Assembly (NCBI GenBank): GCA_036744005.1
Contig: DAINOJ010000011.1
Coordinates: forward strand, 4,282-68,281
From: Bacillota bacterium
GTDB taxonomy: Bacteria > Bacillota > JAAYKD01
Length of the DNA: 64,000 nt
Direction of reading: 5' to 3'
The notes beneath the pieces are model-generated. The model did no database searches. It saw only the letters and a program-made list of their open reading frames with translations, and was not told the origin of the DNA. Position 1 is the first letter of the stretch. Every line of letters starts with the position of its first letter. Positions 1,938-50,591 of this stretch are shown here, piece after piece. The position numbers and the translations under genes were made by a program.

Positions 1938-2046
1938 CTACAGTACTGAGCAGGTTGCTTTTCTGGAAGAAAAGTCAACCGGGCCTAAAGTCGGGCAACA
2001 GGATCTACCACCTGTGGGACAGTTTTGTTCCACAGGTGTTTTTTTA
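1938..2046 (+). promoter_or_regulatory. candidate NiCo (czcD-motif) riboswitch with intrinsic terminator expression platform
   Basis: The leader contains ACUGAGCAGG (1945-1954) and GUGGGACAGU (2014-2023), recalled as the conserved junction strands of the czcD motif. An internal P2-like hairpin GGUUGCUUUUC-GAAAAGUCAACC is present. A 9-bp terminator stem CACCTGTGG/CCACAGGTG (2010-2037) plus a T7 run overlaps the 3' aptamer strand. Immediately upstream of a CDF exporter. Confidence 0.55.
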
Positions 2047-2064
2047 TGTAAGGAGCGATACATC

Positions 2065-3234: not shown

Positions 3235-3280
3235 AGTACAAAACAAGGCTCCGGTCGCTTGTCCGGAGTCTTGTTCTGTA
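3234..3280. terminator. bidirectional intrinsic terminator between convergent genes
   Basis: Inverted repeat ACAAGGCTCCGG / CCGGAGTCTTGT flanked by A/T runs, lying between the stop at 3234 and the minus-strand stop at 3287. Confidence 0.5.
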
Positions 3281-3286
3281 CTAAGT

Positions 3287-4624
3287 TTATTTCTTTAAAA
3301 AAGTAGCAATATCGAGAATGACCTGATCCGGTATGTTTCCCGGTGTGTTGTATTCACTAACATCTAGCTTCCCATTGCTAGGCATAAATAAGTGATTGAG
3401 GTTTTCGTACAGCTTGTAGGTCACATTCATATGGGTGCCTAAGTAGTCCTGCCATGCTAAAAAATCCACATCGACTTTTACCTGAAAATCCGCGTCTCCC
3501 TGCAAAATGAGTATGGGTATTTCTAGTTCGGAAATGAGTTTTCCTGTATCGATGGCATTGAGACTCAACCAGTATGAAGCCGGTTGTTGTAATACCAGAG
3601 TGCCCAAATCGACCTCAGTCAGTTTTTTGATTTTTGCCGCTTCCTGCTGCACTTGTGCCAAATATGTCGCTTTATCGGTTGCCGAAAGTGTGGTGTTCAG
3701 CGCGAGAGCATCTTTGGTTTGGTCTACCATAATATCTTCTAGTTTTCGTGGTGTTCCTGCCATGATGACAATATGTGTCACCTCTGGGTTTTCTGTGGCC
3801 AAATACGGTGCCAACATACCACCCAGACTGTGTCCAATGATGCTAATCTCTGAGTGTGGTAACATTTCTTTGGCTAAGGCAATAGCCGCCATGACGTCGT
3901 CGGTCACTTCTTTTTGAACTGTGATTTGGTGTAGAGCAGCTTGGTCTTCTGCGGCCGGTGGGTATTGATAATACCGTTTATGGTAACGAATGGACGCAAT
4001 CCCTTCCGCCGCTAACCCTTGTGCCAAATCCTTAAAGGGTTGATTCCCTGCCCCCACGGTTTCGTGCATATCCTGAGGTCCGGAACCATGCACCAGAATC
4101 ACCACCGGAGGATTCTCTTTTCCTACCGGTATGGTTAAAATGCCCTGGAGTTTCTCCTCCCCGGTTCCGACTTCGATCTCTTGTTCTTCATAGGAATCGG
4201 TGATTTGTAAGGGTTCCTCAATGGAGAAATAATTCAACCAAAGCCCTTCCAATTTGTAATCATGATCCCAGGTAAGTTTGACTTGAATCCCATTGAGCTC
4301 ATATTGCAAGATGACCGTACTCACGGCCCGATTATTTTTGTATTCCACCGCGGTCTTGTAGAGAGTCTGATACGCTCCAATCGGGTCTGCCACCGATTTC
4401 CAAGCTCCAATGAGAGCGTCCTTGCTGAGGGCTTTGCTCATCGTCGCAGAGAACACCTTTATTGTACCATCAAATTGGGCTTTCGCCATTTCTTCTGCGT
4501 ATCGGTTGCTCAAAGCTAGTATTTGTGCTTCATCATATACAAAGGTTTCTTTTGGCTTTTGCTGACATCCCGTTATAGTGAAAAGTAATATAAGCAAGAT
4601 CGCGAACACGTAGTATTTGCGCAT
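3287..4624 (-). CDS. secreted alpha/beta-hydrolase lipoprotein (serine hydrolase) with N-terminal accessory domain
   Basis: Signal peptide with lipobox LFTITGC. GHSLGG nucleophile elbow. 445 aa. Confidence 0.75.
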   Translation of the reverse strand: MRKYYVFAILLILLFTITGCQQKPKETFVYDEAQILALSNRYAEEMAKAQFDGTIKVFSATMSKALSKDALIGAWKSVADPIGAYQTLYKTAVEYKNNRAVSTVILQYELNGIQVKLTWDHDYKLEGLWLNYFSIEEPLQITDSYEEQEIEVGTGEEKLQGILTIPVGKENPPVVILVHGSGPQDMHETVGAGNQPFKDLAQGLAAEGIASIRYHKRYYQYPPAAEDQAALHQITVQKEVTDDVMAAIALAKEMLPHSEISIIGHSLGGMLAPYLATENPEVTHIVIMAGTPRKLEDIMVDQTKDALALNTTLSATDKATYLAQVQQEAAKIKKLTEVDLGTLVLQQPASYWLSLNAIDTGKLISELEIPILILQGDADFQVKVDVDFLAWQDYLGTHMNVTYKLYENLNHLFMPSNGKLDVSEYNTPGNIPDQVILDIATFLKK

Positions 4625-9211: not shown

Positions 9212-10255
9212 TTATTTTGCCACGGTGAACGCTTCAGCGACAACAGCTAAGTACTCGGTTACGTTAACAGTAACAGAAGCTAGGACATCTTTATCGGTCG
9301 GATAGCCTTTTTCGTCAACAGCAAATTTGCTGATTTGATCTGCAGTTTTGCCAACCATCCATTTTGCTAAGGCATTGGCTTGCTCATACCATTCTTTGGA
9401 GATGCCAGAAGACTTCTTCATGTTATACGCTTCTTTGAGTTCTTGTTTGGTCTTCAGTTCGTCTTCTCTGTTGGTGACAACGCCTTTGGCGTCAAATTTG
9501 ATTTTGACTTGAGCGGTATCAATCACAACTCCGACAACTTTGCCATCTTTATCTGTGGCTACAGCAGCTACATAGGTGTCAGCTTGGGCTAAGGGAAGGG
9601 TTTCTTTTCCATCTACCATGGAATAGCCTTTGGACTTGTTGATTAAGGTTTTAACGCCCAAACCCGCTTTAACGCCATCTTTTACTTCAATGGCATCGGT
9701 CCAAGCTTGTTCAACGGCTTGAATATAACCGGTAACGTTCATGGTTACTTTAGCAACCATATCTTTGTCGGTTGGATATCCATCTTTGTCTACAGGCATC
9801 GCTTTGACTTGTTCGATGGTTTTGCCAATCATCCAAGCTTCAATCGCAGCCATTTGTTCGTTCCATTCTTTTTGAATGCCGGAAGCTTTCTTCATGCCAT
9901 AATCTGCACCCAAATCGGTTTTAGATTTGACTTCGGCAGCAACATCAGATGTGACAGCTAAGGCAGCATCAAACGCGATTTTGGTTTGGGCGGTGTCGAT
10001 GTCGACACTGAGAATCTTGCCATCTTTGTCGAAACCGACAGCAGCAATGGTGACATCGGCTTGACCAACAGCCGTGACGCCCTCAGCAGCATCTTTGGAT
10101 TTGGCGATGGACAGAACAGAACCAAGGCCTAATTTCACGATGGTAGGAGTCGGTGCAGGGGTCGGAGTCGGGGTTGGTGCCGGGGTTTGGTTACAACCAG
10201 CAAATAAGCCAATCGCCATGACCAGAACCAAAACGATAGATAAAGTCTTTTTCAT
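9212..10255 (-). CDS. PplA-like surface lipoprotein with two tandem FMN-binding (FMN_bind) domains
   Basis: Signal peptide and lipobox (LFAGC). Pro/Thr/Ala linker (PTPTPTPAPTPT). Two repeated about-150-aa modules, each ending ...EW.EQ...W..GKT..Q......D..GYPTDKD. Each domain carries the Thr/Ser flavinylation context. Confidence 0.8.
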   Translation of the reverse strand: MKKTLSIVLVLVMAIGLFAGCNQTPAPTPTPTPAPTPTIVKLGLGSVLSIAKSKDAAEGVTAVGQADVTIAAVGFDKDGKILSVDIDTAQTKIAFDAALAVTSDVAAEVKSKTDLGADYGMKKASGIQKEWNEQMAAIEAWMIGKTIEQVKAMPVDKDGYPTDKDMVAKVTMNVTGYIQAVEQAWTDAIEVKDGVKAGLGVKTLINKSKGYSMVDGKETLPLAQADTYVAAVATDKDGKVVGVVIDTAQVKIKFDAKGVVTNREDELKTKQELKEAYNMKKSSGISKEWYEQANALAKWMVGKTADQISKFAVDEKGYPTDKDVLASVTVNVTEYLAVVAEAFTVAK

Positions 10256-10286
10256 TTTTGTCCCTCCAATAAATTTTGTGGCTCAA

Positions 10287-10326
10287 ACAACGTTCTTATT
10301 ATAGCACGCAAGCTAACTTTTGGCAA
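10287..10326 (-). promoter_or_regulatory. sigma-A-like promoter for the FMN-binding lipoprotein gene
   Basis: Minus-strand TTGCCA - 17 nt - TATAAT, about 35 nt upstream of the start codon. Confidence 0.45.
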
Positions 10327-10473
10327 GTTATTTGTAAATTTTTTCTCGAAGTAAAATATCGTTTTTCTGGTAACTCTTGGCTAAAATACTACTATTTTCA
10401 CAAAAAGACAACTATTTGTGATTATCGTAACAATGATTTATTGTATTTTTGACATATGTCAGTAAACCACGGG

Positions 10474-10905
10474 TTACCACTCCTCATAGACGATTTCGTC
10501 GGTCCGGATACGCTCTGCCAAGTTTTTTATATTACGTTCAATCACCTCAATAATGATTTTGAACTCCTCGTCGCTTTTCCCTGTGGGATCTTCCAATCCC
10601 CAGTTTTCCTCATAACCGGCAGGGAAAAACGGGCAATACACGTTGCATCCCATTTTAATGACGATATCACATTCGGGCAATTCGGTGAGAAGCTTCGAGG
10701 TTTGAGTGGCTTCCATATCGATTTCATAGATTTCTTTCATCAAACGCACCGCATCTTGGTTGATTTGTGGCTTGGTTTCGGTTCCCCCGGAGTAGCTTTC
10801 GAAGATATTGGCTGCAAACCGCTTTCCCAAAGCTTCGGCAATTTGACTTCTGCAAGAATTGTGTACACAGACAAAGGCCACCTTAGGTTTCGGTCTCATA
10901 TGCAT
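10474..10905 (-). CDS. arsC: arsenate reductase / low-molecular-weight phosphotyrosine phosphatase family (thioredoxin-coupled ArsC type)
   Basis: CVHNSCRSQ P-loop with catalytic Cys. About 143 aa from MHMRPK. Confidence 0.7.
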   Translation of the reverse strand: MHMRPKPKVAFVCVHNSCRSQIAEALGKRFAANIFESYSGGTETKPQINQDAVRLMKEIYEIDMEATQTSKLLTELPECDIVIKMGCNVYCPFFPAGYEENWGLEDPTGKSDEEFKIIIEVIERNIKNLAERIRTDEIVYEEW

Positions 10906-10921
10906 TCTCCTTTTGTATCTT

Positions 10922-12178
10922 TTAGAAAGCACCGTTTGGAATGGACTTCACCACATACGGTCTCTTGGGATTCATGTTCGATATCACCAAATCTGCATTC
11001 TCTTTGGGATGATGTTCCGCAACATATCTTTTCTGTAACGGAATGTACTTGGTTTTGTATCTCTCCAAGAACTCCACCCCATAGAGTGGAACATCTCGTT
11101 CTTCTGCTCTTCGTAGGACTTCCTCGAATGTGATATCCAGATACACTTTCGTATCGATGTATGAATTCAAAGGAGGCCGAAACAAATACACACCTTCTAC
11201 TATCAGGAGGGTGTGGGGGCCAAGGTTCACCTTCACTCTTTTATCAAACAGGTCGGTCTTCAAATTCAAGCAGAGGATTTCTGTCTCGCATCTTCCCTGC
11301 TCAAGAAGTGGTTGTAGAATCTCTCGAATTAATTTTTGTGTATCAAATCCATGTAAGTAGTACGATTCCTTTTCATTTCCTGCGCTACGAATCGCCTTTG
11401 GTTGATGAAAATCGTCCATGCTCACCACTTCTGCTTCTAAACCAATGGCTCTCAAATAGCGCTGATAATTCCGCGCAAACGTTGTTTTCCCGGAGGTGTC
11501 TACTCCGTTCACACCCAGTATTCTTGCCTTGGGTGTCCGTAACCATGTCTTCGTTAGATCATCCATGACCTGGACTTGTTGTACAAAATCCAAAACGTCC
11601 TCTAGATTCGCAGCTCGAAAAGTAGCCGCAGAAAAATCATCCTGTGCTCCAAATCCGTGTGAGACACCGATGGAAGGAAGATGATTCTCGTAGGCGGCCA
11701 TGAAATCGATGAGGGTATCACCCACCAAGACCGCGGTTTCTCCGGTTCTTAAAAAAGATGCGATTGCCGCTCCTTTACTCCGGAAAGGCCGTGCACTCAC
11801 AATCGTCTGAAAGTATTTGGCAATACCATTTTGATGTAGTACAGATTGCATAAAGGCATCGTTTCCCGTCGAGCACACAGACAGCCGGTGCCCCTGCTCT
11901 TTGAGTCGGCTCAAAACCTCTTTGGTTCTAGGAAACAAGTCTCCCCCTTGAGTATGTTGCTTTTCATACTCCAGAAATAACGTTTTCAATTCTTTGTAGT
12001 CTGCTAATTGAGGAAAGAGTGTTTTCAAATAGGTATCCATATCCTGATGCAATAGCTGGTATACTTCGGCCTCATCGGGATACGGTAATCCCAAGCGATC
12101 ACTGATTTGCCTTAAAGCCGACATCACACTCAAACCCGGCTGATACAGGGTTCCATATAAATCAAAAATGATATGCAT
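10922..12178 (-). CDS. fusion protein: N-terminal HAD-family phosphatase + C-terminal P-loop nucleoside/uridine-kinase-like domain
   Basis: N-terminal DxD-type HAD motif (IIFDLYGTL) and ...VGDTLIDF. C-terminal Walker A GVNGVDTSGKTT, with uridine-kinase/PRK-like topology. Confidence 0.7.
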   Translation of the reverse strand: MHIIFDLYGTLYQPGLSVMSALRQISDRLGLPYPDEAEVYQLLHQDMDTYLKTLFPQLADYKELKTLFLEYEKQHTQGGDLFPRTKEVLSRLKEQGHRLSVCSTGNDAFMQSVLHQNGIAKYFQTIVSARPFRSKGAAIASFLRTGETAVLVGDTLIDFMAAYENHLPSIGVSHGFGAQDDFSAATFRAANLEDVLDFVQQVQVMDDLTKTWLRTPKARILGVNGVDTSGKTTFARNYQRYLRAIGLEAEVVSMDDFHQPKAIRSAGNEKESYYLHGFDTQKLIREILQPLLEQGRCETEILCLNLKTDLFDKRVKVNLGPHTLLIVEGVYLFRPPLNSYIDTKVYLDITFEEVLRRAEERDVPLYGVEFLERYKTKYIPLQKRYVAEHHPKENADLVISNMNPKRPYVVKSIPNGAF

Positions 12179-16949: not shown

Positions 16950-19361
16950 TTAGTTGTTGTTATTTCCTTTGCAGAAACCTCGAATTTCTTGTATGGTGGC
17001 AAACGTTTGCTCAGTATGACCTTTGTCCACAACAACCAAGGAAGGTGCTGCTTGCACATGGAAGGTTTCGGCCATATCCGGTTTTTCAAAGGCATCAATG
17101 ACTTGATACTGAATGCCTGCTTCATCCAACATACGCTTCGCTGTTTTGCAGTTAGGACAAGTCGGTGTTACGAAAAGGAAGATTCCTTCTAGGGGCTCGA
17201 CTTCACTGACGGTCACCACTTTGGCTTGCATTGTAGGAACTTGAACTGCGCTTTTTCTGAGAACCACATGCTGAATCTCACGATTTGCTTTCTCTTGTTG
17301 GTATTCCACACGATCTTTAAATTCTTGTGCCTTCCCTTCGTTCCAATTCTGTACCGGACGATAGTAACCGGTAATGCGGCTGTAGACTTCTGCATCACTG
17401 CCACATTGCGGACATTGGAAATGTTCTCCGGTGAGGTATCCATGTTCCGGACAAATCGAATAAGTAGGTGACATGGTATAGTAGGGTAAGCTATAATTTT
17501 CGGCAATTTTTCGCACTAGGGTTGCAGTACTCTTCCAATCGGGTAATTTCTCACCCAAGAAAGCATGGAATACCGTGCCCGAGGTATAAAGCGTTTGTAA
17601 ATCATCTTGAATATCGAGAGCAGAAAAAATATCATCCGTAAATCCTACGGGTAAATGGGAGCTGTTGGTATAATAAGGAGTACCATTTTGGTTTGCTGTC
17701 TTGATGCTGGGGTATTTTTCAACATCATGTTTCGCCAAGCGATAGGTTGTCGATTCAGCTGGAGTTGCTTCCAAGTTAAACAAGCAACCATATTGCTCTT
17801 GATACATACTCAGCCGATCGCGCATATAATTCAGGACTTCTTTTGTAAATTCCTGGGTTCGTGGATCGGTCAACCCTTTACCCAACCAATTTGCATTCAA
17901 CCCCACTTCGTTCATACCAATGATGCCAATGGTCGAGAAATGGTTGTCCAAGGTACCCAAATAATGCTTGGTATAGGGATAAAGTCCCGCATGTAATAAT
18001 TGAGTAATGACTTTCCGTTTGGTATCGAGGGACCTCGCCGAAATGTCCATTTGTCGGTTCAATCGAGCAAAGAAATCGGCTTTGTCTGCGGATAAGTAGG
18101 CAATCTTCGGCATATTGATGGTGACAACTCCAATAGACCCTGTACTCTCTCCGCTTCCAAAGAACCCACCGGCTTTTTTACGCAGTTCCCGTAAATCCAG
18201 ACGTAACCGGCAACACATGGAACGGACATCATTGGGTTCCATATCGCTGTTGATGTAATTAGAAAAATACGGAGTGCCATATTTTGCCGTCATTTCAAAG
18301 AGTAAACGATTGTTTTCGGTATCGCTCCAGTCAAAATCCTTGGTAATCGAGTACGTTGGAATGGGATATTGGAAACCTCTACCATCGGCATCCCCGCCCA
18401 GCATGATTTTGATGAAGGCTCGATTGATGATGTCCATTTCGGCTTGACAATCACCGTAGGTAAAGTCCATTTCTTTTCCCCCGACAATGGCAGGCTGATT
18501 GGCCAAATCGGGTGGTACAACCCAGTCTAGGGTGATGTTGGAGAAGGGAGCTTGTGTTCCCCAGCGACTGGGGGTGTTCACACCAAAAATAAAGGATTCA
18601 ATGCTCTTCTCTACTTGATCATAGGTGAGATTGTCCACTTTGACAAAGGGTGCTAAATAGGTATCAAACGAAGAAAACGCTTGTGCACCGGCCCATTCGT
18701 TTTGCATGATGCCTAAGAAATTAACCATTTGGTTGCACAATGTGGCCAAATGCTTCGCCGGTGAAGAAGTAATCTTGCCGGAGATTCCTCCCAAGCCTTC
18801 TTGAATGAGCTGACGCAAAGACCAACCGGCACAATACCCGGTTAACATGGATAAATCATGTAAGTGCAAGTCACAGTTTCTATGGGCTTCGGCAATTTCC
18901 GGATCATAGATTTCGCTGAGCCAGTAGTTGGCAGTTATCGCACCGGAGTTACTGAGGATTAAACCACCAACCGAATACGTCACGGTTGAATTTTCTTTGA
19001 CTCGCCAGTCGCTCACTTTTACGTAGCTATCGACAATTTTCTTATAATCCAAGAGGGTGGATTTGACTTGGCGCAAGCTCTCGTGCTGTTTGCGATACAA
19101 AATATAGGCACGTGCTACGTCGGCATAACCTGCTTGAATGAGGATACGCTCCACGCTATCTTGAATGTCTTCCACCTGAATGAATCCATCTTTGATTTTG
19201 GGAGCAAAATCGGCAGTCACTTTTAAGGCCATGAAATCCACTACATTACGGTCGTAAGGGGTTTGCTTTGCTTCAAATGCTTTAATCATAGCATTGGAAA
19301 TCTTCTCCAAGTTAAATTCAACGATTTGTCCGTCGCGCTTCATCACACGGTACATCTTCAT
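16950..19361 (-). CDS. nrdD: anaerobic ribonucleoside-triphosphate reductase (class III, NrdD) with C-terminal thioredoxin-fold extension
   Basis: 803 aa. ATP-cone-like N-terminus, C-terminal Zn ribbon CPEHG...CPQCG and glycyl-radical motif RITGYYRP, then an extra ~75-aa CPNC thioredoxin-like tail (residues ~730-803). Confidence 0.9.
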   Translation of the reverse strand: MKMYRVMKRDGQIVEFNLEKISNAMIKAFEAKQTPYDRNVVDFMALKVTADFAPKIKDGFIQVEDIQDSVERILIQAGYADVARAYILYRKQHESLRQVKSTLLDYKKIVDSYVKVSDWRVKENSTVTYSVGGLILSNSGAITANYWLSEIYDPEIAEAHRNCDLHLHDLSMLTGYCAGWSLRQLIQEGLGGISGKITSSPAKHLATLCNQMVNFLGIMQNEWAGAQAFSSFDTYLAPFVKVDNLTYDQVEKSIESFIFGVNTPSRWGTQAPFSNITLDWVVPPDLANQPAIVGGKEMDFTYGDCQAEMDIINRAFIKIMLGGDADGRGFQYPIPTYSITKDFDWSDTENNRLLFEMTAKYGTPYFSNYINSDMEPNDVRSMCCRLRLDLRELRKKAGGFFGSGESTGSIGVVTINMPKIAYLSADKADFFARLNRQMDISARSLDTKRKVITQLLHAGLYPYTKHYLGTLDNHFSTIGIIGMNEVGLNANWLGKGLTDPRTQEFTKEVLNYMRDRLSMYQEQYGCLFNLEATPAESTTYRLAKHDVEKYPSIKTANQNGTPYYTNSSHLPVGFTDDIFSALDIQDDLQTLYTSGTVFHAFLGEKLPDWKSTATLVRKIAENYSLPYYTMSPTYSICPEHGYLTGEHFQCPQCGSDAEVYSRITGYYRPVQNWNEGKAQEFKDRVEYQQEKANREIQHVVLRKSAVQVPTMQAKVVTVSEVEPLEGIFLFVTPTCPNCKTAKRMLDEAGIQYQVIDAFEKPDMAETFHVQAAPSLVVVDKGHTEQTFATIQEIRGFCKGNNNN

Positions 19362-23356: not shown

Positions 23357-24100
23357 TTATCGTTCACGAAATCTAGCCAAAAATTCTTGGGTTTCCAATC
23401 TGCTGGGTTTCTCGAAGATTTGCTCTGGGCTTCCCTCTTCCCAAATCACACCATCTTTCATGAAAACGACTTGGCTTGAGACATCTCTGGCAAAAGCCAT
23501 CTCATGAGTGACCACCAACATGGTCAGCCCTTCGGATGCCAACGTGCGCATAACCGTTAAGACTTCACCGACCATTTGTGGGTCCAGTGCCGAAGTTGGT
23601 TCATCGAACAAGAGTATTTCGGGTTCCATGGCCAGAGCACGGGCTATGGCCACACGTTGCTTCTGACCCCCGCTCAATTGCTTGGGTTTGGCATGTATAA
23701 AGGGAGCCATTCCCACTTTCTGCAAATAGAACATCGCCCGTTCCGTCGCTTCTTTCTCTTTGACTTTCAGTACCAGTTCCGGTCCAACCGTGCAGTTCTT
23801 CAACGCAGTCATATGAGAAAAGAGATTGAAGTTTTGAAAAACCATACCCACCTTGGCACGATAGGCGGCAACCGGTGTGGTGTGCTGTAATATATTGTTT
23901 CCATGAAATAAAATATCACCACTGTTGGGTGTCTCTAGAAGATTGATGCAACGCAACAGGGTCGATTTCCCGGAACCGGAGGAACCTATGATGCTGATGA
24001 CATCTCCCGATGATACTCGAAAGTCAATGTCTTTGAGAACAACGTTTTGACCAAACACCTTGCTCAAATGATGGATTTCCAAAATAGGTGATATATTCAA
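23357..24100 (-). CDS. polar amino acid ABC transporter ATP-binding protein
   Basis: Walker [10 protein letters not shown], signature LSGGQKQR, Walker [12 protein letters not shown]. Confidence 0.9.
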
Positions 24101-24888
24101 TCTCGAGGAACCTCCTTTCTGGGACGATAACTGTATAAGCCACTGGTATGTGCCAAAGTATCGGTCGTGGCCAAATCATAAGAGTTTTCTCCATCCAACT
24201 TGGTTTCCAACCAACGCAACAATCGAGAAGCAGTAAGTGTCATGGTGAGGTAAATCACCATGACAATCGTCGCGGACTCAAAATACAAGTATAACGACCC
24301 TACCACACTTTTATGAACAAAGAATAGATCAGTAATACTAATCACAGACAAGACTGAGGTGTCTTTAATATTAATAATGAAATTGTTTCCAATTTGCGGA
24401 ATGATGTTACGAAAGGCCTGGGGCAGAATCACATGCAACATGGCCTGCCGGTGATTCATCCCTATCGCTTTGGCCCCTTCGCTCTGCCCGGAATCAATGG
24501 AGAGTATGCCACCCCGTACCGTCTCAGCCATGTACGCTCCGGTGTTAATAGAAACAATGAAGAACGCAGCAGTCCACATATCCATTGAAAGGTTAAAGGC
24601 AATTCTAGCTCCGTAATAAATAAATACGGATTGCACAATCATCGGAGTGCCTCGGAACAACTCCACATAACTGGTCAAGAAAAGATTCATCGCCTTCAAG
24701 GAAAAGCGTTTCAGCCAAGAATCTTTGGGATGGACCGGTATAGTTTGGATCACTCCTACAGCAAACCCAATGACACAGCCGAAAAAGGTTCCGACCAGCG
24801 AAATGAGCAAGGTATTCCTTGCACCCATCATATATGAGCTACCGTATTTCGTCCAGCTCTTCACGATTCCTAACCAAAATTGTGACAT
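24097..24888 (-). CDS. polar amino acid ABC transporter permease
   Basis: EAA-like permease loop. 4-nt overlap with the ATPase gene. Confidence 0.85.
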
Positions 24889-24915
24889 GGGATTACTCCT
24901 TACTTTTTCTTATGT

Positions 24916-25758
24916 TTATTCAGACAAAGGTTGAATGGCGATGGCAGCATCCATCATCTCTTCAAAATCCTCAACCGTTAATTCTGATAGGACACCATTG
25001 ATGACTTCCAATAACTGTGTATTGCCTTTTTTAACAGAAATTCCTAAATTGACTTCTTCTTCCGATACTTCGAAATCATCTTCTGTTCCGGTAAAATCGA
25101 GAATGACTAAGTTTTCGTTCACCTGAACCGCAGCCATGGCTGTGGGTAAGTCACAAACGACGTAATCCACCGCCTTGGAGTTCAAAGCGACTAACATGGA
25201 AGGAGCGGATTCCTGTGCGGGTAAAATGTTGGCATTTTCGATTTGCGGCAAACATACATCATACCAGACGGTACCCAACTGCGAAGTAGCGGTTCCCCCG
25301 GCTAAATCGGACAGCCCTTTGGCTTTCGCATAAATGCTGTCTTTATTGGTTAAGGTGACAATGGAAGCATAGTAATAGGGATCTGAAAAATCCACTTGCT
25401 CTAACCGCTCCGCAGTGATGGATTGTCCTGCAATGACAGCATCCACTTCACCCGATTGCAGGGCCGGAATCAAAGAATCCCAATCCAAGCGCACTATTTG
25501 TAATTGGTACCCACCTGCTTCGGCTATGAGTTTAGCCATGGAAACGTCGTAGCCGTTGGCAAAATTTTTGCTGTCAGCGATGGCTACCGCACCATTGGCA
25601 TCATTCTCTTGACTCCAATTGTAAGGAGCATAACCACATTCCATGGCAACGCGCAAAGTTTTCACCTGTGGTTGAGGAGCGGCCGGAGCCGGTGTGTTGC
25701 AAGCAGACAATGTTAGAACAAGGAGAACCATCAGGAGTAATGCAGAAATCTTTTTCAT
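24916..25758 (-). CDS. amino acid ABC transporter substrate-binding lipoprotein
   Basis: Start set at MKKISALLLM (ATG 25758, AAAGGATGA ribosome-binding site). Lipobox LTLSAC. SBP_bac_3-like fold. Confidence 0.85.
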   Translation of the reverse strand: MKKISALLLMVLLVLTLSACNTPAPAAPQPQVKTLRVAMECGYAPYNWSQENDANGAVAIADSKNFANGYDVSMAKLIAEAGGYQLQIVRLDWDSLIPALQSGEVDAVIAGQSITAERLEQVDFSDPYYYASIVTLTNKDSIYAKAKGLSDLAGGTATSQLGTVWYDVCLPQIENANILPAQESAPSMLVALNSKAVDYVVCDLPTAMAAVQVNENLVILDFTGTEDDFEVSEEEVNLGISVKKGNTQLLEVINGVLSELTVEDFEEMMDAAIAIQPLSE

Positions 25759-25759
25759 G

Positions 25760-26070
25760 GGAATCATCCTTTCATTTTCACAAAAAAACAAGAGCTTTTC
25801 ACGAATGAAAAGCTCCATAAAATCGTACGAGGACACGGTACGATCATCATGATAGCTCTCCACCTTAGTGACAGTCCACAGCATATTCTGCTGAAGCCCA
25901 GCTTTACTCGTTCAGGCAAACAGGAGTAAAACTTCGGCGAAGCTCCCCTTTCATCCACACCAATGCACTGTTGTTGTGTCGGATTACTCTTGGTCTTCGC
26001 TCCTCTATCTCATGTATTTTGTTGTATTAGGTGTTACGATAGCACAATAATACTACCCTGTCAAGGTTCT
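25760..26070 (-). promoter_or_regulatory. long structured 5' leader with terminator/attenuator upstream of the amino-acid ABC operon (class unassigned)
   Basis: Minus-strand TTGACA-17-TATCGT promoter near 26060. About 250-nt leader ending in GAGCTTTTCA-ttcg-TGAAAAGCTC hairpin plus a U7 run (25786-25815) immediately before the ribosome-binding site. Confidence 0.35.
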
Positions 26071-28978: not shown

Positions 28979-30310
28979 TTATCTGATTCGTCGATACAAA
29001 TATCCTTTGGCTTCGAGTCCCTTTTTATATTGAAGGAGTGTATCCAATAGTGGGACTAGCAGGGCTGCCACAAATCCTCCGGAAAACCCATTGTTGTACA
29101 AATTCATTCCGGCATGCAGAACCCCAATATTGACAACCAGAAAAACATGAATCATACCTGCTACAACGCCTGCTATGGGACCATAGACCTGGGCAATGGG
29201 TGCTAAGGTGGTTCCAAACAAAGCAGCAAGCACTATACCGACAGAAGATACTTCGTGCAAACTGAACATACCCGCCAAAAATACCCCAAGCATCACAGGC
29301 AGAACATTTCTAACATGCTTTCCGTATGCTCCAAAGCCCGTCATAGTAAATATGCCACCCAAAACCGGTCCGTTTAGTTCCCCCTGCACCAATCTGACGT
29401 AAGCCAACCCCGTCACTCCCATGATTGCCATGTTCATCAACGTCATGGGCAATCCATATGAGAACACATAATCCCTGTTCTCAAGGTTGCGATCCCTGAG
29501 TAACTCAAGAAAACCAGAGAACCGAAACCCGTTCCAACCCCATCCCAATAAAAAGAAAGCGACAAAGAGTAACGCCAGTACAAACGTTAAGGGAGCATTG
29601 TTACCCGAGGAAACCAAGGAAACCGGAGCAATGTAGATACCAAATCCGCGCAAAATAGCAATCATAAACATTCCGATTAACCCAGCCGCAAAACCAATAT
29701 TGTATAAGCTCAATCCTTTATGAAAACTTTTCACGTGTTCTGCCAGAGGAGGTAAAATAAGACCGATGAATACCCCCGCTAATAATCCTAAGGAGTGTCC
29801 CAGCCAAGGAACCAACCCCAAATTAAACGAGATTTCGGATACCACCGGACCTAATGCCGTACCAAACATGGCTGGTAACACATACTTGGTAAACTCCACC
29901 TTCATCAGCAGAGTGAACAAATACACTCCCAATATAATGGGTACGGAGTTATATAGATTCTTGCCAAATAACGAGAAGCCGGCAATCGTAAAAACCGCCG
30001 CTAAATGTCCACCATTCACCGGTACTTTGAGCAACCACAAAATGACAATGCTTTTTAAAACCATGAACCCGGCATTCCAGAAGGCAGCACCTATGTTGGC
30101 TATGTAAAAATAATCGGTCAACAGATTCGCCGGAGAGGTAAGAATGATAGTACTTCCTTGCACAATCTCGCTAATCGGATTGAAAAACAGCCCGGACAAG
30201 AAAAAGAAAACGGCAAGTAAGAGTAAGACGACATAACCTTTGCTACGAATACGAACCACCCTTTCCAACGACTTGCTGTCTTCGTTTATCTTCTGTATTC
30301 TTCTTTGCAA
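28979..30310 (-). CDS. large polytopic membrane protein of unknown function
   Basis: 443 aa with more than 10 predicted TMs. 25-nt overlap with the upstream GGDEF gene. Confidence 0.55.
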   Translation of the reverse strand: MQRRIQKINEDSKSLERVVRIRSKGYVVLLLLAVFFFLSGLFFNPISEIVQGSTIILTSPANLLTDYFYIANIGAAFWNAGFMVLKSIVILWLLKVPVNGGHLAAVFTIAGFSLFGKNLYNSVPIILGVYLFTLLMKVEFTKYVLPAMFGTALGPVVSEISFNLGLVPWLGHSLGLLAGVFIGLILPPLAEHVKSFHKGLSLYNIGFAAGLIGMFMIAILRGFGIYIAPVSLVSSGNNAPLTFVLALLFVAFFLLGWGWNGFRFSGFLELLRDRNLENRDYVFSYGLPMTLMNMAIMGVTGLAYVRLVQGELNGPVLGGIFTMTGFGAYGKHVRNVLPVMLGVFLAGMFSLHEVSSVGIVLAALFGTTLAPIAQVYGPIAGVVAGMIHVFLVVNIGVLHAGMNLYNNGFSGGFVAALLVPLLDTLLQYKKGLEAKGYLYRRIR

Positions 30311-43088: not shown

Positions 43089-44699
<1,611 letters not shown>

Positions 44700-44704
44700 T
44701 TGTA

Positions 44705-44750
44705 AAAACCCCTACTACCATGCCTGTATCGGTAGTAGGGGTTCAATTTT
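44705..44750. terminator. intrinsic terminator (bidirectional context)
   Basis: CCCCTACTACC ... GGTAGTAGGGG stem plus a T run, between convergent genes. Confidence 0.55.
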
Positions 44751-44751
44751 A

Positions 44752-45252
44752 CTATATCGTTGTCAAATGCTTCTCGTATACTATTTTATGATCCCCATTA
44801 TCATAATAATCTTTGAAAATAGCGACTTCACGATACCCGTGTTTGAAATAAAATTTGCGAGCGGCAAGGTACGGTTCTCTTGATGATGTTTCAATATAAA
44901 TTTTTTCGCCTTTTTGACGCAGAATTTGATTTTCTGTCAAATGGATTAATTGGCTCCCTATTTCTCTTCGGGAATACTTTGGATCCACAACAATCCAATA
45001 TAAATCATAGCGATTTCTAGTGCATGGAATTTCCCCATAACAAGTATAACCAACGATTTGATTTTGCATATAACAAGCCACAAAATGATACCCACTTGTG
45101 CTTGCTCCTTTTAACAAATGTTCTTGTGCCAGCTCTTCTGCGATTTGCACCTCGTGATCATAAAAAGCTCCCGTATCCGAAGTGATACGTCGTATAACCC
45201 GATCATCCCCCGGTTGAAGACCATATTCGAACCGCAATTCCTGATTATTCAT
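44752..45252 (-). CDS. GNAT-family N-acetyltransferase
   Basis: Start at ATG 45252 (GGAGGT ribosome-binding site). GNAT motifs (..IGSQLI.. / ..ARKFYFKHGY). Confidence 0.75.
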   Translation of the reverse strand: MNNQELRFEYGLQPGDDRVIRRITSDTGAFYDHEVQIAEELAQEHLLKGASTSGYHFVACYMQNQIVGYTCYGEIPCTRNRYDLYWIVVDPKYSRREIGSQLIHLTENQILRQKGEKIYIETSSREPYLAARKFYFKHGYREVAIFKDYYDNGDHKIVYEKHLTTI

Positions 45253-46291
45253 CACGTACCTCCAACATGGCAAGTAGTATATCTTTGAAATTCAAACCCC
45301 ATTTTCGTGCAATGTTATGAAACCCGTAGAAACTAGGATTCGCATTGACCTCCAATACCCATACAGTTCCCCAACGATCTACTCGGAAATCTATGCGACC
45401 TAAGCCATTCAAGCCACATATTTCCCAGCATTGTAAAGCCATTTTCTGCAATTCCTCTACCAGATTGGCATCGGTATCTACGAAGTCATAACTTTCTTTC
45501 ACATGCTCATATTCAAACGTGTTCTCTGTCCACTTGGCATCATAATTGATGATTTTCTCTTTATGCCTTTGCTCAAAACCTTCAAATACCCATTCGTAAG
45601 GAGGAAGAACAGTAGGGTTATCTTTGGGACCAAAAATACACACATTGAACTCTCTTCCTTCAATGAAGTGCTCTGCAAACAAATCCAGAGACGTTTTCTC
45701 CTCAATACTTTTCATTCGCTCTTGGAGCTCCACTTGGGAATGTACAAGCAAAACCGAATCATCCTGTAAGCCAATGGAAGCATCTTCACTTGTGGCTTTC
45801 ACAATGTATTTCTGGTTCGGTATAAATCTGGTCCAATCTTCCTCTGCAATCCATGGGGAGGTTCTAACACCACGGGCTTCTAGTAGCAACTTTGTTTGAA
45901 CCTTATGGGTAGTCAACTCTAGAGAAGCAGAGGAACACCCACTAAACGGCAACCGATAGGTCTCTAAGATACGAGCGACTCGAAAAACCAAATCCTTATG
46001 ATTGGGTTCAGAATCCACAAGGTTCACCACTTTTAGGTTGGGATTCTCTACAAAATGCCGATGAATGGTTTCTATGCTCGATAGTTGAAAAGGTAGAGTT
46101 AGAACCTTATATTGCATTTCTTTTAATTCTTCCGCTATCCAAACCGCTTGAGTATAGTTATCTATGACATCTTCCGGTGATTCCTTTGTAATTTCATTGT
46201 GAAGGATCACCACCAAAGGTTTACTCCACGACTTCGAACCATACTGGATCATAGATGTTCTCCCCATTGTAATTAATTGTGATTTCCTCAC
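45245..46291 (-). CDS. ATP-grasp ligase, D-Ala-D-Ala-ligase-like (paralog A)
   Basis: Ddl-type C-terminal ATP-grasp motifs (EHFIEGREFNVCIF, GLGRIDFRVDRWGTVWVLEVNANP). Confidence 0.75.
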   Translation of the reverse strand: MRKSQLITMGRTSMIQYGSKSWSKPLVVILHNEITKESPEDVIDNYTQAVWIAEELKEMQYKVLTLPFQLSSIETIHRHFVENPNLKVVNLVDSEPNHKDLVFRVARILETYRLPFSGCSSASLELTTHKVQTKLLLEARGVRTSPWIAEEDWTRFIPNQKYIVKATSEDASIGLQDDSVLLVHSQVELQERMKSIEEKTSLDLFAEHFIEGREFNVCIFGPKDNPTVLPPYEWVFEGFEQRHKEKIINYDAKWTENTFEYEHVKESYDFVDTDANLVEELQKMALQCWEICGLNGLGRIDFRVDRWGTVWVLEVNANPSFYGFHNIARKWGLNFKDILLAMLEVRDE

Positions 46292-46595
46292 CTTCTTGAA
46301 TCTCTCTCAGCGCGATAAAGTGAATCTCTTGTTGTTCAGGGAATCGCACGAACTTCGCATTGGGTTGATAAGAATGATTATATAACGAACCATAGCCCAG
46401 TGCGATCGCTCCGGTTAGAAATTCGCTTCCCCACAAATAACAATACTCTCCCAACAGAGTCGAGCCAATACACTTCCACTCTGTTTCGTCAAAGACAAGA
46501 ACCGGGGCAATCTCAATGATTTGATGTTCCGGAATCCGTTCGTCTGTAAAAACCCCTTTACCCTTGCCTTCCATGTGCTTTATATAAATCGACAA
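46221..46595 (-). CDS. SET-domain protein (putative lysine/peptide methyltransferase)
   Basis: GKGKGVF N-terminal motif, NHSYQPN (NHSC-like) and EEITINY C-terminal motif. About 125 aa. Confidence 0.7.
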   Translation of the reverse strand: MSIYIKHMEGKGKGVFTDERIPEHQIIEIAPVLVFDETEWKCIGSTLLGEYCYLWGSEFLTGAIALGYGSLYNHSYQPNAKFVRFPEQQEIHFIALREIQEGEEITINYNGENIYDPVWFEVVE

Positions 46596-46614
46596 AGCAA
46601 ACCCTCCAAATACA

Positions 46615-47604
46615 TTATGCTTCTGCAATTATTCTGCGAATGACTTCTGTATAACTGAATCCCGCCTGTTCGGCAGCCGCAATAAAGCCGCTTTCCCGAG
46701 GGGATATACAAGGATTTGCGTTGATCTCCAGTAACCAGGGATTTCCGTTTTCGTCAATACGATAATCCAAGCGAGCATAACCCTTTAACCCAAATGCCTT
46801 CCAACAACGGATGGACAATTCAGCAAGCTGATGTAACAAGCCCTGATCTTTGTGGTCAAATTCAAAGGCAGAAATCGAATGCTGAAACTCATAACTACCT
46901 TCATCCCATTTTGCATTATAATCTAACAGTTCGAACTTCCCTTGATCCCGGTACCCCAAAAACCGAATCTCTCCGGCAGGTAGCACGACCGGATTCCCGG
47001 AATCACCGAGCATGGAAATGCCAATTTCTCTACCACTTATGTATTTCTCAGCAAAAAATTCCATGTTTGTCGATGCGTTTCTTTTTTCAATGCACTCACG
47101 CAACGAGATACACGACTCTCCTCCTACAATGGAATCTTGATGAATCCCTATCGATGCGTCTTCATAGATGGGTTTCACGATATATAAGGGGTGGGGACTC
47201 CAATGTACATAATCTTGAGTGGTCATCCAGGGTGGTGTTGGAACACCAATGGCGATGAGTTTTTCTTTGGTTAGCACTTTATTTGTAGTGATCCTCAATA
47301 CTTCAGCGGAATTGCCTGTGTACTTAAACAGATGGCTTTCTAATACACTTGGAATGAGATGATACTCTTGACCTTTTCCAAATTCGCTCTCCACTAAGTT
47401 GAAAATAAACGGTGGCTGCAAGTGGTGAAGAGAATCTATCCAGTGATCGGATGTGGGTTGAATCATCAATCGATGTGGTAGATACCCTAAGTTCTTTAAG
47501 GAAGCCTCTACCGCGGCAATTTGCTCAATCACATCTAAATCGTCTTTGGAAGCATGGATGCGGACTTGATTAAATAAAATTGGAATAGTTGGTAACGGTT
47601 GCAT
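46615..47604 (-). CDS. ATP-grasp ligase, D-Ala-D-Ala-ligase-like (paralog B)
   Basis: GYARLDYRIDENGNPWLLEINANP and EKYISGREIGISM ATP-grasp motifs. GGAGAAG ribosome-binding site. Confidence 0.75.
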   Translation of the reverse strand: MQPLPTIPILFNQVRIHASKDDLDVIEQIAAVEASLKNLGYLPHRLMIQPTSDHWIDSLHHLQPPFIFNLVESEFGKGQEYHLIPSVLESHLFKYTGNSAEVLRITTNKVLTKEKLIAIGVPTPPWMTTQDYVHWSPHPLYIVKPIYEDASIGIHQDSIVGGESCISLRECIEKRNASTNMEFFAEKYISGREIGISMLGDSGNPVVLPAGEIRFLGYRDQGKFELLDYNAKWDEGSYEFQHSISAFEFDHKDQGLLHQLAELSIRCWKAFGLKGYARLDYRIDENGNPWLLEINANPCISPRESGFIAAAEQAGFSYTEVIRRIIAEA

Positions 47605-47675
47605 TCTACTTCTCCTTCAGCATGGTACCTGTATCATATTCTCATTGAAACCGAATTTCCCTTCCATCAAACCAC

Positions 47676-47719
47676 ATAAAAAGTAGCGAAGAGCCCAAAA
47701 AGGCCTTCGCTATTTTTTT
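47676..47719 (-). terminator. intrinsic terminator after sensor GGDEF/HD-GYP gene
   Basis: AGCGAAGAGCC-caaaaa-GGCCTTCGCT hairpin with flanking A/T runs. Confidence 0.5.
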
Positions 47720-50591
47720 ATATGACATTGTCTCTAATGATGATTCGAATGATTTCCGGGTCAAATTGCGTTCCAGCCGCATTCATCAATTCTTGTTTGG
47801 CTCGTTCTACAGACATGACTTCTTTTCTGTAGGGTCTTGAGGAGGTCATGGCATCGAACGCGTCTGATATCGCAATAATTCGAGCATCCAGTGGAATCTC
47901 TTCTCCACGAATTCCTTTCGGGTATCCCTTGCCATCCCAGCGCTCATGGTGGCTCAATACCCCATCGGCAATACCGGCAAACTCATTAGTAGCACTTAAC
48001 ATACGATACCCTATGGCGGGATGACGTTTGATTTGCTCGTACTCCTCTTCGGTCAAGCGTCCAGGCTTTTCTAGGATGTCGCTGGATATAATAATTTTCC
48101 CAATGTCATGTAGCAATCCCAATGTCGCGATGTCGTCTACTTTGTGTTGCGACAAATCCAACGCTTTGGCAATTTTTACAGCAAGATCTTTGACTCTTTG
48201 GGAGTGTCTTTCTTCTCGTGAGCTTTTCTCAAAAAGGGTGTTGATAATCGTCTTAATGGTCAACCCGCGAACACCTTGGCTTTCGCTGACTTTTCTCTTA
48301 TACATATACTCTTCGGCTCGTTTAAACACCTGTTCTAATTCGAGATGAGGATGTTCTTTCGTTTCCCAACCAAATGCAATGGAAAAAATAAGTTTATCGG
48401 TTTTCAAATCGTTGGCATCTTTTGTGATTCGTTGCACCTTTTCTTCTGCTTCTTCCGAAGTCGTGTTGGGCAAAATGAGGGCAAACTCATCTCCTCCCCA
48501 ACGAGAAACAATCCCCTTTCCGGAAACATGTGAAGTGAGCAGATTGGCCGCTAATTTGAGTAATTTGTCGCCCTCGTAGTGTCCAAAAGCATCATTGGTG
48601 AGTTTTAGGCCATTGAGATCTGCCATGACTATGGTCAACGGATAATGATCGGGTGTATCGAGTCGCTTCATTTCTTCTTCGAAGAATCTACGGTTATATA
48701 AGCCGGTCAAGGAATCGTGGAAGCTCAAGTACTCGATTTCTTTCCTTTGGGTCATTTTTTGTGTGGCATCTCTAAAGACCAAGACCACCCCAGACATTTC
48801 CCCTTGGCTGTTCTTTATGGGCGAGGCACTGTCTTCAATGAGATACGCACTTCCGTTTAGTGAAGTCAGCACGGCATGATTGCTTAGCTCATGAGTGATA
48901 TGAGTACGAAAAACTTCTGCTACCGGATCTCGTATCTCTACTAGATGATCCTCATGCGATAATCGGAAAACATCTTTGTAGTACACCCCTTTGGCTTCTT
49001 TTTCTGACCAACCCGTCATTTCTGCACAGGCCTTGTTGATCATCTCTATTCTCTCATTCATCCCCACTACCATGACTCCATCTCCAATGGAAACAAGGGT
49101 TGAGAGATAGCGATTCTTCTCAATTTCCAGCTGATCTCTGTATCTCGCCCGTTCAATTCGGTTCCACACCCCACTCATGAGGGAAGTAACCTGGTAGATG
49201 TCGTTGTCATCATAAGCATCTTTTTTGTTCGCCAACCCAAGGGTCGCTACAATACGATTGTCTTCAAATACAGGAATGGCCAACCAGCGTTTTAGCGGAA
49301 CATGGCCCTCTGGATATCCTTTCTTTAAAGGATGATTTGCTTGAAAGTCGTTAATGAGGAAGGGTTTTCTCTGACGAATGACTTCTCCCCAGATTCCGGT
49401 TCTCTCTAGTTGATACACGGTCTGCTTCTCTGCGACCAAACACTCGTCCATGACCTCTTTCGACCAAGAGTTGATGGTTAATTCTTCTTTTTCTTCGTTA
49501 TATAAGTAAATGTAGCCAAATTGGCTCCCCGTCATGCGAATGATTTCATTCAACACAAAATCGAGCCAATCGGAAACAGAGCCTTCCTCCCGGCTCATCA
49601 CATGGAACATAATGGTGTTGCGTACAAGATTGTTCTCCAATTCTGCTGTTTGACGTTTCACCTCTTTGTTAATCATTCGATTGGAAACAAACAAAAGAAG
49701 CATCACAATACCAAGGAGCGTCCCCAGAAAATAAAGGGACATTTTTCGGTAATCCGGAGTAGAGTTAACCAAAAATGGAAACCATTTGGTATACAATGCT
49801 TCATAGGTTCCATTTTCCGCAACCACCGCTAATCCCTCGTTCAGCAATGCCAGTAACTCTTTGTCTCCCTCTTTCACAGCAAAACTAAACTTTTGCTCAA
49901 AACCTTGCAAAGCCACTTTAATACGATCGATTCCATTATCGGACAAGCGAGTGACCGCTTCTACGTTGGTAATCTTCAAATCGTTGATTAACTTTTCGCC
50001 GACTAAACTCTGTGCTAAAACCGCGTCGTGTTTACCGGATGACAATAATTGAAAGGCATCGGCATAGGTGGGGACAGGAATCAAAGAATCGGTAAATTGC
50101 ATTCTTTGAGCATACTCCTGGGCATTATCCCCCTGCATGACGATGATCTCTTTACCAAACAAATCCTCTTCCGATTTAATTTCTGTGTAGCCCTTTCGAA
50201 CAAAGATGTTCCCACGCATAACGATATACGGAACCGTGAAATCAAAATAGTCTTCTCGTTCTATGGAGTAACCTACTAAAGGCAATACATCCAGTTGCCC
50301 CAGTTCGAGCTCTTTTTTGATGGTATCCCATTGATCTACCTTAAATTGAATCTCTAAACCCATCTCATTGGCAACCGCTTTCAGTAATTCCACAGAAAAC
50401 CCATCCGCTTTCCCCTCGGTCACCACAGAAAAAGGTGGGTAATCGTATTCAGATGCACTGAAGTAGATTTTCTTATCTTGACCCGTTTGTGCTAACACTT
50501 CAAAAGGTGATAAAACGGTTGCGAATAAAACGAGCGCGCAAAGCACTACTTTTGCTACATGATGTTTCCGTCGTTTCATCGCTCTCACCAC
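47718..50591 (-). CDS. multidomain c-di-GMP signalling protein: signal peptide, 2x periplasmic solute-binding (SBP_bac_3) domains, TM, PAS/GAF, GGDEF and HD-GYP
   Basis: 957 aa. RWGGDEF intact, HD-GYP with HDIGK...HHERWDGKGYP. The N-terminal half carries two amino-acid-SBP-like repeats. Confidence 0.85.
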   Translation of the reverse strand: MVRAMKRRKHHVAKVVLCALVLFATVLSPFEVLAQTGQDKKIYFSASEYDYPPFSVVTEGKADGFSVELLKAVANEMGLEIQFKVDQWDTIKKELELGQLDVLPLVGYSIEREDYFDFTVPYIVMRGNIFVRKGYTEIKSEEDLFGKEIIVMQGDNAQEYAQRMQFTDSLIPVPTYADAFQLLSSGKHDAVLAQSLVGEKLINDLKITNVEAVTRLSDNGIDRIKVALQGFEQKFSFAVKEGDKELLALLNEGLAVVAENGTYEALYTKWFPFLVNSTPDYRKMSLYFLGTLLGIVMLLLFVSNRMINKEVKRQTAELENNLVRNTIMFHVMSREEGSVSDWLDFVLNEIIRMTGSQFGYIYLYNEEKEELTINSWSKEVMDECLVAEKQTVYQLERTGIWGEVIRQRKPFLINDFQANHPLKKGYPEGHVPLKRWLAIPVFEDNRIVATLGLANKKDAYDDNDIYQVTSLMSGVWNRIERARYRDQLEIEKNRYLSTLVSIGDGVMVVGMNERIEMINKACAEMTGWSEKEAKGVYYKDVFRLSHEDHLVEIRDPVAEVFRTHITHELSNHAVLTSLNGSAYLIEDSASPIKNSQGEMSGVVLVFRDATQKMTQRKEIEYLSFHDSLTGLYNRRFFEEEMKRLDTPDHYPLTIVMADLNGLKLTNDAFGHYEGDKLLKLAANLLTSHVSGKGIVSRWGGDEFALILPNTTSEEAEEKVQRITKDANDLKTDKLIFSIAFGWETKEHPHLELEQVFKRAEEYMYKRKVSESQGVRGLTIKTIINTLFEKSSREERHSQRVKDLAVKIAKALDLSQHKVDDIATLGLLHDIGKIIISSDILEKPGRLTEEEYEQIKRHPAIGYRMLSATNEFAGIADGVLSHHERWDGKGYPKGIRGEEIPLDARIIAISDAFDAMTSSRPYRKEVMSVERAKQELMNAAGTQFDPEIIRIIIRDNVI

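Follow-up and report, generated by a model that had tools for sequence, protein, structure and literature searches.

In methanogens and in Bacillus (kamA-yodP), a lysine 2,3-aminomutase (AblA) and a GNAT acetyltransferase (AblB) make N-epsilon-acetyl-beta-lysine, and Ngg, a bifunctional GNAT and ATP-grasp enzyme, makes N-acetylglutaminylglutamine in the NAGGN osmolyte pathway. We analysed a 64,000-nucleotide stretch of DNA from a Bacillota bacterium (GTDB lineage JAAYKD01; assembly GCA_036744005.1, contig DAINOJ010000011.1, positions 4,282 to 68,281 of the forward strand), hereafter the window, which contains an operon for two ATP-grasp ligases (grB and grA), a predicted SET-domain methyltransferase and a GNAT acetyltransferase. 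The operon proved to be a rare, derived variant of a widespread cassette of anaerobic bacteria, in which the grB ligase is usually accompanied by a lysine 2,3-aminomutase (KamA). We give a probability of about one half to the reading that it serves to make, non-ribosomally, a small peptide derived from lysine or beta-lysine, which would be N-acetylated and, in the SET-bearing variant, N-methylated.

The initial annotation, made from the letters of the window, had described four minus-strand genes in one operon, and this arrangement was borne out. Four co-oriented open reading frames (ORFs) at 44752-47604 follow one another on the minus strand in the order grB, SET, grA, GNAT, and all of them scored above a Pfam gathering score, which we used as the threshold for domain calls, with NCBIfam cutoffs deciding family membership. 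The gene starts were refined with gene calls made independently on public contigs of identical sequence and with the ribosome-binding sites read in the sequence. As a result, grB (46615-47604, 329 amino acids) starts behind a GGAGA ribosome-binding site, while the SET gene, with an ORF at 46221-46628, was shortened to 46221-46595 (124 amino acids) with a TTG start at 46595, which is preceded by GGAGG and lies 19 nucleotides past the grB stop. Likewise, grA (ORF 45245-46291, refined to 45245-46252, 335 amino acids) starts with ATG at 46252 and overlaps the end of the SET gene by 32 nucleotides, and the GNAT gene (ORF 44752-45273, refined to 44752-45252, 166 amino acids) starts with ATG at 45252, reproducing the 8-nucleotide overlap with the grA stop that had been described.

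A hairpin with a U-run at 47678-47718 on the minus strand (-20.1 kcal/mol, z = -5.38, with 0 of 200 shuffles folding as well) lies where the upstream GGDEF/HD-GYP sensor gene ends, and is a likely terminator that would isolate the operon from upstream transcription. A second hairpin on the same strand at 44706-44744 (14 bp with an 11-bp G+C-rich core, then a U-run; -25.2 kcal/mol, z = -5.56 against shuffled sequence) lies between the operon and a convergent ABC-F gene, and is likely a bidirectional terminator common to both. In a scan for consensus promoters and terminators, matches were no more frequent than in shuffles and neither flanking hairpin was picked up, owing to their long loops; folding recovered both. 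With strong hairpins and U-runs on both flanks, the four genes thus form one compact, translationally coupled and self-contained transcription unit. The sensor gene directly upstream, on the far side of the terminator hairpin (47718-50591, minus strand), encodes a 957-amino-acid SBP_bac_3-GAF-PAS-GGDEF-HD-GYP protein, and its adjacency to the operon was not seen in relatives.

Both ligases contain the Dala_Dala_lig_C domain (79.8 bits, 2.5e-22, for grB and 70.8 bits, 1.5e-19, for grA) and are 32.9% identical to each other (E = 1e-64). Their PDB matches were Ddl structures only, which left the N-terminal ~85 residues uncovered, and they stayed below every NCBIfam Ddl cutoff, with 106.5 (grB) and 91.4 bits (grA) against PRK01372 (cutoff 243) and 88.0 and 86.4 bits against TIGR01205 (cutoff 245.65), so neither qualifies as a Ddl. 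Functional residues were read by alignment to E. coli DdlB. Among the positions that we take to be related to nucleotide, Mg or catalysis, K97, K144, E180, E187, K215, D257, E270 and N272 (DdlB numbering) were invariant in 42 of 42 sequences from three clades, and that of R255 was Arg in 41 and Lys in one. At the presumed D-Ala-binding positions Glu15, Ser150, Tyr216 and Leu282, grB and grA instead have Asp, Ala, Trp and Gly, and the related ligase grC has Ala, Thr, a gap and Asp, a comparison that we regard as supportive only. With a domain above the gathering score and conserved catalytic residues, both window proteins are ATP-grasp carboxylate-amine ligases.

We collected 818 grB homologues, and a separate search at E <= 1e-30 gave 809 clusters at 50% identity. 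The ligases form a three-clade family, in which grA branches on the side of grB as a sub-clade of its own and grC is a separate, more distant Ddl-like clade that is ~25% identical to grB; the window grB places in the grB clade. The initial view of two paralogous ligases stands as far as the Ddl-like character of both is concerned, but they are no simple paralogue pair, belonging instead to a three-clade family with lysine 2,3-aminomutase as its usual partner.

The SET protein scored 59.3 bits against PF00856 (cutoff 22.4, 5.5e-16), clearing the profile threshold below which the SET call would have been withdrawn, and the motifs quoted at the outset are all present as GKGKGVF (GxG), NHSYQPN within YNHSYQPN (NHSxxPN) and EEITINY (ExxxxxY). 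In the PDB it matched S. pombe Set7 (5h6z; 4.8e-19, 39% identity) and vSET (4.3e-08), and its AlphaFold model (predicted local distance difference test score 87.4) superposes on both with template-modelling (TM) scores of ~0.8, the values for 5h6z being 0.78-0.81. By family score, motifs and predicted fold, the gene product is a minimal SET-domain methyltransferase. The statement that bacterial SET domains are rare does not apply to this small family (~125 residues), which comprises 1427 clusters at 90% identity (E <= 1e-3), may have several unrelated substrates, and has its other members in unrelated genomic contexts. We rejected monophyly of the cassette SETs: within the small-SET family at large they form at least two groups, and cassettes may thus have recruited SET repeatedly. 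Fusions of SET to a ligase or to a GNAT were sought, and none was found among the SET or grA homologues listed. Elsewhere, a small-SET gene was observed beside several PhyH dioxygenase genes, one for an aminotransferase and enolase-superfamily genes (L088, 342-8059), and another, in Sporosarcina, beside the spore-coat kinase gene cotH (L087, 3893-5378).

The GNAT protein passed Acetyltransf_1 (42.4 bits, gathering score 20.7) as well as Acetyltransf_7 and Acetyltransf_10, and in the PDB it matched 2r7h, a structural-genomics GNAT from Desulfovibrio (1e-30). It is 32-52% identical to the GNATs of related cassettes. A second, different GNAT stands beside the conserved one at L121 (5918-6379, minus strand) and L176 (2013-2510, plus strand).

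We then scanned species-representative genomes with a grB profile, which yielded at least 590 confirmed loci from at least 600 stretches, and examined the best 80. Neighbours were counted by ORF clustering and tblastn at the 47 loci where grB has 3 kb or more of flank on either side. KamA stood beside grB at 45 of the 47 loci, grC at 43, GNAT at 38, a GNAT-HDAC fusion at 15 and SET at 2, with KamA - grC - grB - (GNAT-HDAC fusion) - GNAT as the canonical layout; grB is the core enzyme of this family-wide cassette. The hosts belong to mostly anaerobic groups, among them Syntrophales, Desulfobacterales, Bacteroidales, Clostridia, Negativicutes, Spirochaetes and Planctomycetes. The Sporomusa KamA passed the lysine-type model TIGR03820 (527.8 bits, cutoff 525.4), and for the cassette KamA proteins this model outscored those for the Glu, Arg and EpmB types, with EpmB the weakest. 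Furthermore, the motifs YQCD and xDxPGGGGK, which in the Clostridium enzyme hold the two aspartates that bind the epsilon-ammonium group of lysine, are retained in nearly all of 56 sequences. Judged from its sequence, the cassette KamA is thus a lysine-type 2,3-aminomutase, and as the usual partner of the ligases it indicates lysine or beta-lysine chemistry.

Natural fusions also bind these parts into one module, since grB was found fused to KamA (L030, L079 and P0297), to GNAT (P0111, P0296, P0304 and others), to grC (P0259 and at least eight more) and to a Cys-rich protein (P0288). The cassette contains neither a conserved small ORF nor a candidate target protein. An accessory deacetylase, which many cassettes have, most resembles acetylpolyamine amidohydrolases (APAH; 218-235 bits to 9gkz, 3q9b and 6phr), as against at most 130 bits to single-domain protein deacetylases; acetylpolyamine amidohydrolases act on small molecules.

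Metabolite transporters or a peptidase adjoin some cassettes. An EamA (DMT) transporter gene directly follows grB-GNAT at L001 (8528-9397), and genes for an M20 peptidase and an EamA transporter precede the SET-bearing cassette of L175 (163-2602). In Sporomusa silvacetica (L038, NZ_CP155573.1) the flanks at 2331-4514 and 9702-11771 encode an ABC exporter with a fused cyclic-nucleotide-binding domain and an apparent TonB-dependent outer-membrane receptor, the latter a label given by inspection of the sequence; these genes hint at export and re-uptake of a product in that organism. Upstream of the cassette at L079 (395-3353) and L085 (2118-5018) lie three divergent genes for binding-protein-like products (PBP_like_2 twice and NMT1_3), and the same trio at ~2830-5850 in L091 and L094; no permease or ATPase was seen with it. 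The trio accompanies two architectures, SET-GNAT-grC... and grC-grB-SET-grA-GNAT.

The relatives of the window operon, grB-SET-grA-GNAT, are found in Clostridia and Bacillota metagenome-assembled genomes (MAGs). Several of these (L085, L091, L092, L094, L096-L098 and L175) have the layout grC-grB-SET-grA-GNAT and no KamA within the flanks, so the combination is conserved beyond the window, and the prospect that it might recur in no other genome did not materialise. SET genes also occur in related cassettes of a different order, namely SET-GNAT-grC-Cys-rich-grB-KamA in Sporomusa silvacetica DSM 10669 (L038), SET-GNAT-grC-Cys-rich-grB::KamA, with a grB-KamA fusion, in a Clostridia MAG (L030), and grA'-SET-GNAT-grC-Cys-rich-grB::KamA in a Mageeibacillus MAG (L079). 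The closest relative with the same gene order is the metagenome contig L176 (grB-grA-GNAT-grC-KamA, without SET). Further layouts are grB-grA-GNAT on another metagenome contig (L177), grB-GNAT in two MAGs (L001 and L093), and KamA-grC-grB-GNAT-GNAT2, convergent with grA, at the Sphaerochaeta-type loci (L099-L127). Among cassettes, SET is thus confined to a few Firmicutes lineages, and the number of ligases varies from one to three. Since grB-grA-GNAT occurs without SET at L176 and L177 and with it at L175, L085, L091 and L094, SET behaves like a tailoring gene and is an optional tailoring insert. The window operon itself has a grB-clade ligase in one operon with a 2r7h-like GNAT, as in the wider cassette, but the 64 kb contain no gene for KamA, grC, a deacetylase or a Cys-rich protein. 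Its amino-acid input is therefore uncertain, and the lineage would use either alpha-lysine or another amino acid, or beta-lysine supplied by a gene elsewhere in the genome.

We propose the following route. By the standard ATP-grasp mechanism, for which its catalytic residues are intact, grB would activate a carboxylate as the acyl-phosphate and join it to an amine of a lysine-type amino acid, which in most relatives would be beta-lysine from the adjacent lysine 2,3-aminomutase. The second ligase of the grB lineage, grA, would add one more residue, GNAT would N-acetylate a free amino group, and SET would N-methylate the epsilon-amino group of the lysine-type residue, resulting in a small N-acetylated, N-methylated metabolite resembling a di- or tripeptide. 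Its role could be that of a compatible solute, of a metabolite akin to polyamines or of a secreted compound. We infer the substrates, the order of steps, the action of SET on a small molecule instead of a protein, and the biological role. A metabolite target is favoured by ligases that appear Ddl-like and not RimK-like (91-106 as against 19-24 bits), by the free-amino-acid enzyme KamA as near-universal neighbour and fusion partner, by the APAH-like deacetylase, by the transporter and peptidase neighbours at some loci and by the lack of a conserved target gene. In addition, the gain and loss of tailoring genes and the varying number of ligases are typical of small-molecule pathways. Of what the initial annotation had proposed, the toolkit that builds and decorates a small peptide agrees best with the wider evidence, although the annotation had missed the link to KamA and lysine and the optional nature of SET.

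Several points weigh against this proposal. The product is known for no member of the cassette family, no transporter is conserved across it, and the link to beta-lysine is indirect for the window locus, given the genes absent from its 64 kb. Rfam scans of the window and of ten related loci found neither a lysine riboswitch nor any other regulatory RNA at the cassette; the riboswitches of the window, for lysine and NiCo, lie elsewhere. GNAT, HDAC-family and SET enzymes are classic protein-lysine modifiers too. Above all, a small-molecule substrate of a SET enzyme would be unprecedented, since all characterised SET-domain enzymes methylate protein lysines (PMC10117894). That SET methylates a lysine-type amino group of a small non-ribosomal peptide rather than a protein is a tentative suggestion, prompted by the operon context, which we hold at clearly less than even odds.

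The same enzymes invite the alternative that the ligases, like RimK, TTL or EpmA, attach amino acids such as beta-lysine to a side chain or to a terminus of some target protein, and that GNAT, SET and the deacetylase modify its lysines. SET, GNAT and HDAC-family enzymes typically act on protein lysines, as do all characterised bacterial SET proteins on proteins, and the EF-P system attaches beta-lysine to a protein. In their nucleotide-binding region the ligases weakly matched TTL and RimK, and the best NCBIfam match of GNAT is RimI (TIGR01575), though at 49.4 bits it falls short of the equivalog cutoff of 86.4 and GNAT is not assigned to RimI. However, the RimK model TIGR00768 reached only 18.8 bits for grB and 24.1 bits for grA (cutoff 143.4), so the RimK-like tagging offered initially as an alternative gained no positive support. 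EpmB was likewise the weakest KamA match, no conserved candidate substrate gene lies in or beside the cassette, the deacetylase resembles APAH and not protein deacetylases, and the ligase number and the tailoring genes fluctuate as in metabolite pathways. We consequently judge protein or peptide tagging unlikely.

Another possibility is that the ligases supply peptidoglycan, or a polymer related to it, with an alternative D-amino-acid dipeptide, and that GNAT is a D-amino-acid acetyltransferase. Ddl enzymes are indeed the closest characterised and solved relatives of the ligases, and 2r7h was deposited as a 'putative D-alanine N-acetyltransferase', but this name is an unverified deposit title. 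The ligases score at less than half of the Ddl cutoff of 243 bits, the residues at their presumed D-Ala-binding positions are replaced, no mur, dcw or van genes lie nearby, and the conserved partner is a lysine aminomutase and not a racemase, which makes a role in the cell envelope very unlikely.

The ABC-F gene at 43116-44699 is convergent with the operon, as described initially, and its protein best matches the general model PRK15064 (668.7 bits, below the cutoff of that model). Since other genes hold this position in the nearest relatives and the protein is of a general type, we rejected a functional link and treat the neighbour as coincidental, and the early hint at a ribosome-directed product or self-protection gains no support. 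Several beta-lysine-containing natural products target the ribosome and the ABC-F gene shares its terminator region with the operon, but a ribosome-targeting antibiotic pathway with this ATPase as self-protection is highly improbable, because the adjacency is absent from the closest relatives (L085, L091, L094 and L175-L177), an ABC-F gene lies within the flanks of only 2 of the best 80 of at least 590 loci (L005 and L058), and the protein falls short of the ribosomal-protection cutoff (372.2 bits against 380) and far short of all named resistance families.

Elsewhere in the window, a lysine riboswitch (25845-26015, minus strand, 91.4 bits) precedes a three-gene amino-acid ABC importer (23357-25884, minus strand; SBP_bac_3, permease and ATPase), which probably takes up lysine and might matter to the operon should the latter use this amino acid. 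A NiCo riboswitch (1940-2024, plus strand, 51.4 bits) is immediately upstream of a cation-diffusion-facilitator efflux gene (2014-3234, plus strand), a DUF1576 protein (347 bits) is encoded at 28979-30310 on the minus strand, and an anaerobic ribonucleotide reductase at 16950-19361 is consistent with an anaerobic host.

Should SET act on the proposed peptide, it would be the first methyltransferase of the SET-domain type to have a metabolite as its substrate. Beta-lysine-based peptides made by the KamA/ATP-grasp/GNAT cassette would then form a class that is widespread in anaerobes and has gone unrecognised, and their amino groups would be acetylated, deacetylated and methylated by relatives of eukaryotic histone-tail enzymes. 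Identification of the product would give a function to hundreds of genes annotated 'D-alanine--D-alanine ligase', and a new class of beta-lysine-derived metabolites could emerge, for instance osmolytes, analogues of polyamines or secreted peptides. The SET variant would test whether SET can act on small molecules, which bears on the relation between bacterial tailoring enzymes and the chromatin modifiers of eukaryotes. The cassette is open to experiments in cultured carriers, namely Sporomusa silvacetica DSM 10669 with SET, and Sphaerochaeta globosa and S. pleomorpha, which are of the grA type without SET. The domains themselves and peptide systems that combine ATP-grasp and GNAT enzymes were already known. 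We found no paper on the cassette with KamA or on SET in such an operon, although the amidoligase survey of Iyer, Aravind and colleagues (Iyer et al. 2009) could still contain a mention.

Compared with known systems, the ligases resemble the Ddl/Van enzymes, their closest solved or curated relatives, in the ATP-grasp fold and in the residues Lys97, Lys144, Glu180, Lys215, Arg255, Asp257, Glu270 and Asn272 (DdlB numbering), but differ in scoring below the Ddl cutoffs, in the replaced pocket residues, in the unmatched N-terminal ~85 residues and in genomic context. The SET protein shares its fold and motifs with the minimal SET proteins S. pombe Set7, PBCV-1 vSET, cpnSET/NUE, BaSET and Go1-SET. 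Known members of that group stand alone or are secreted and methylate histones or nucleoid proteins (PMC10117894), whereas the window SET gene is translationally coupled within a ligase and acetyltransferase operon. The grB::GNAT fusions recall the coupling of ATP-grasp and GNAT and the N-acetylated dipeptide of Ngg, but Ngg uses glutamine where the substrate here is probably of the lysine type, is not known to have a KamA or SET partner, and does not appear among the NCBIfam matches of grB and grA. From AblA/AblB the window version differs in having no aminomutase and in carrying a SET methyltransferase, and its GNAT has no AblB model among its NCBIfam hits. The wider cassette nevertheless pairs an AblA-type aminomutase with a small GNAT in the same way, implying the formation of beta-lysine followed by N-acetylation, and to this chemistry it adds one to three ATP-grasp ligases, so that amide bonds would be formed.

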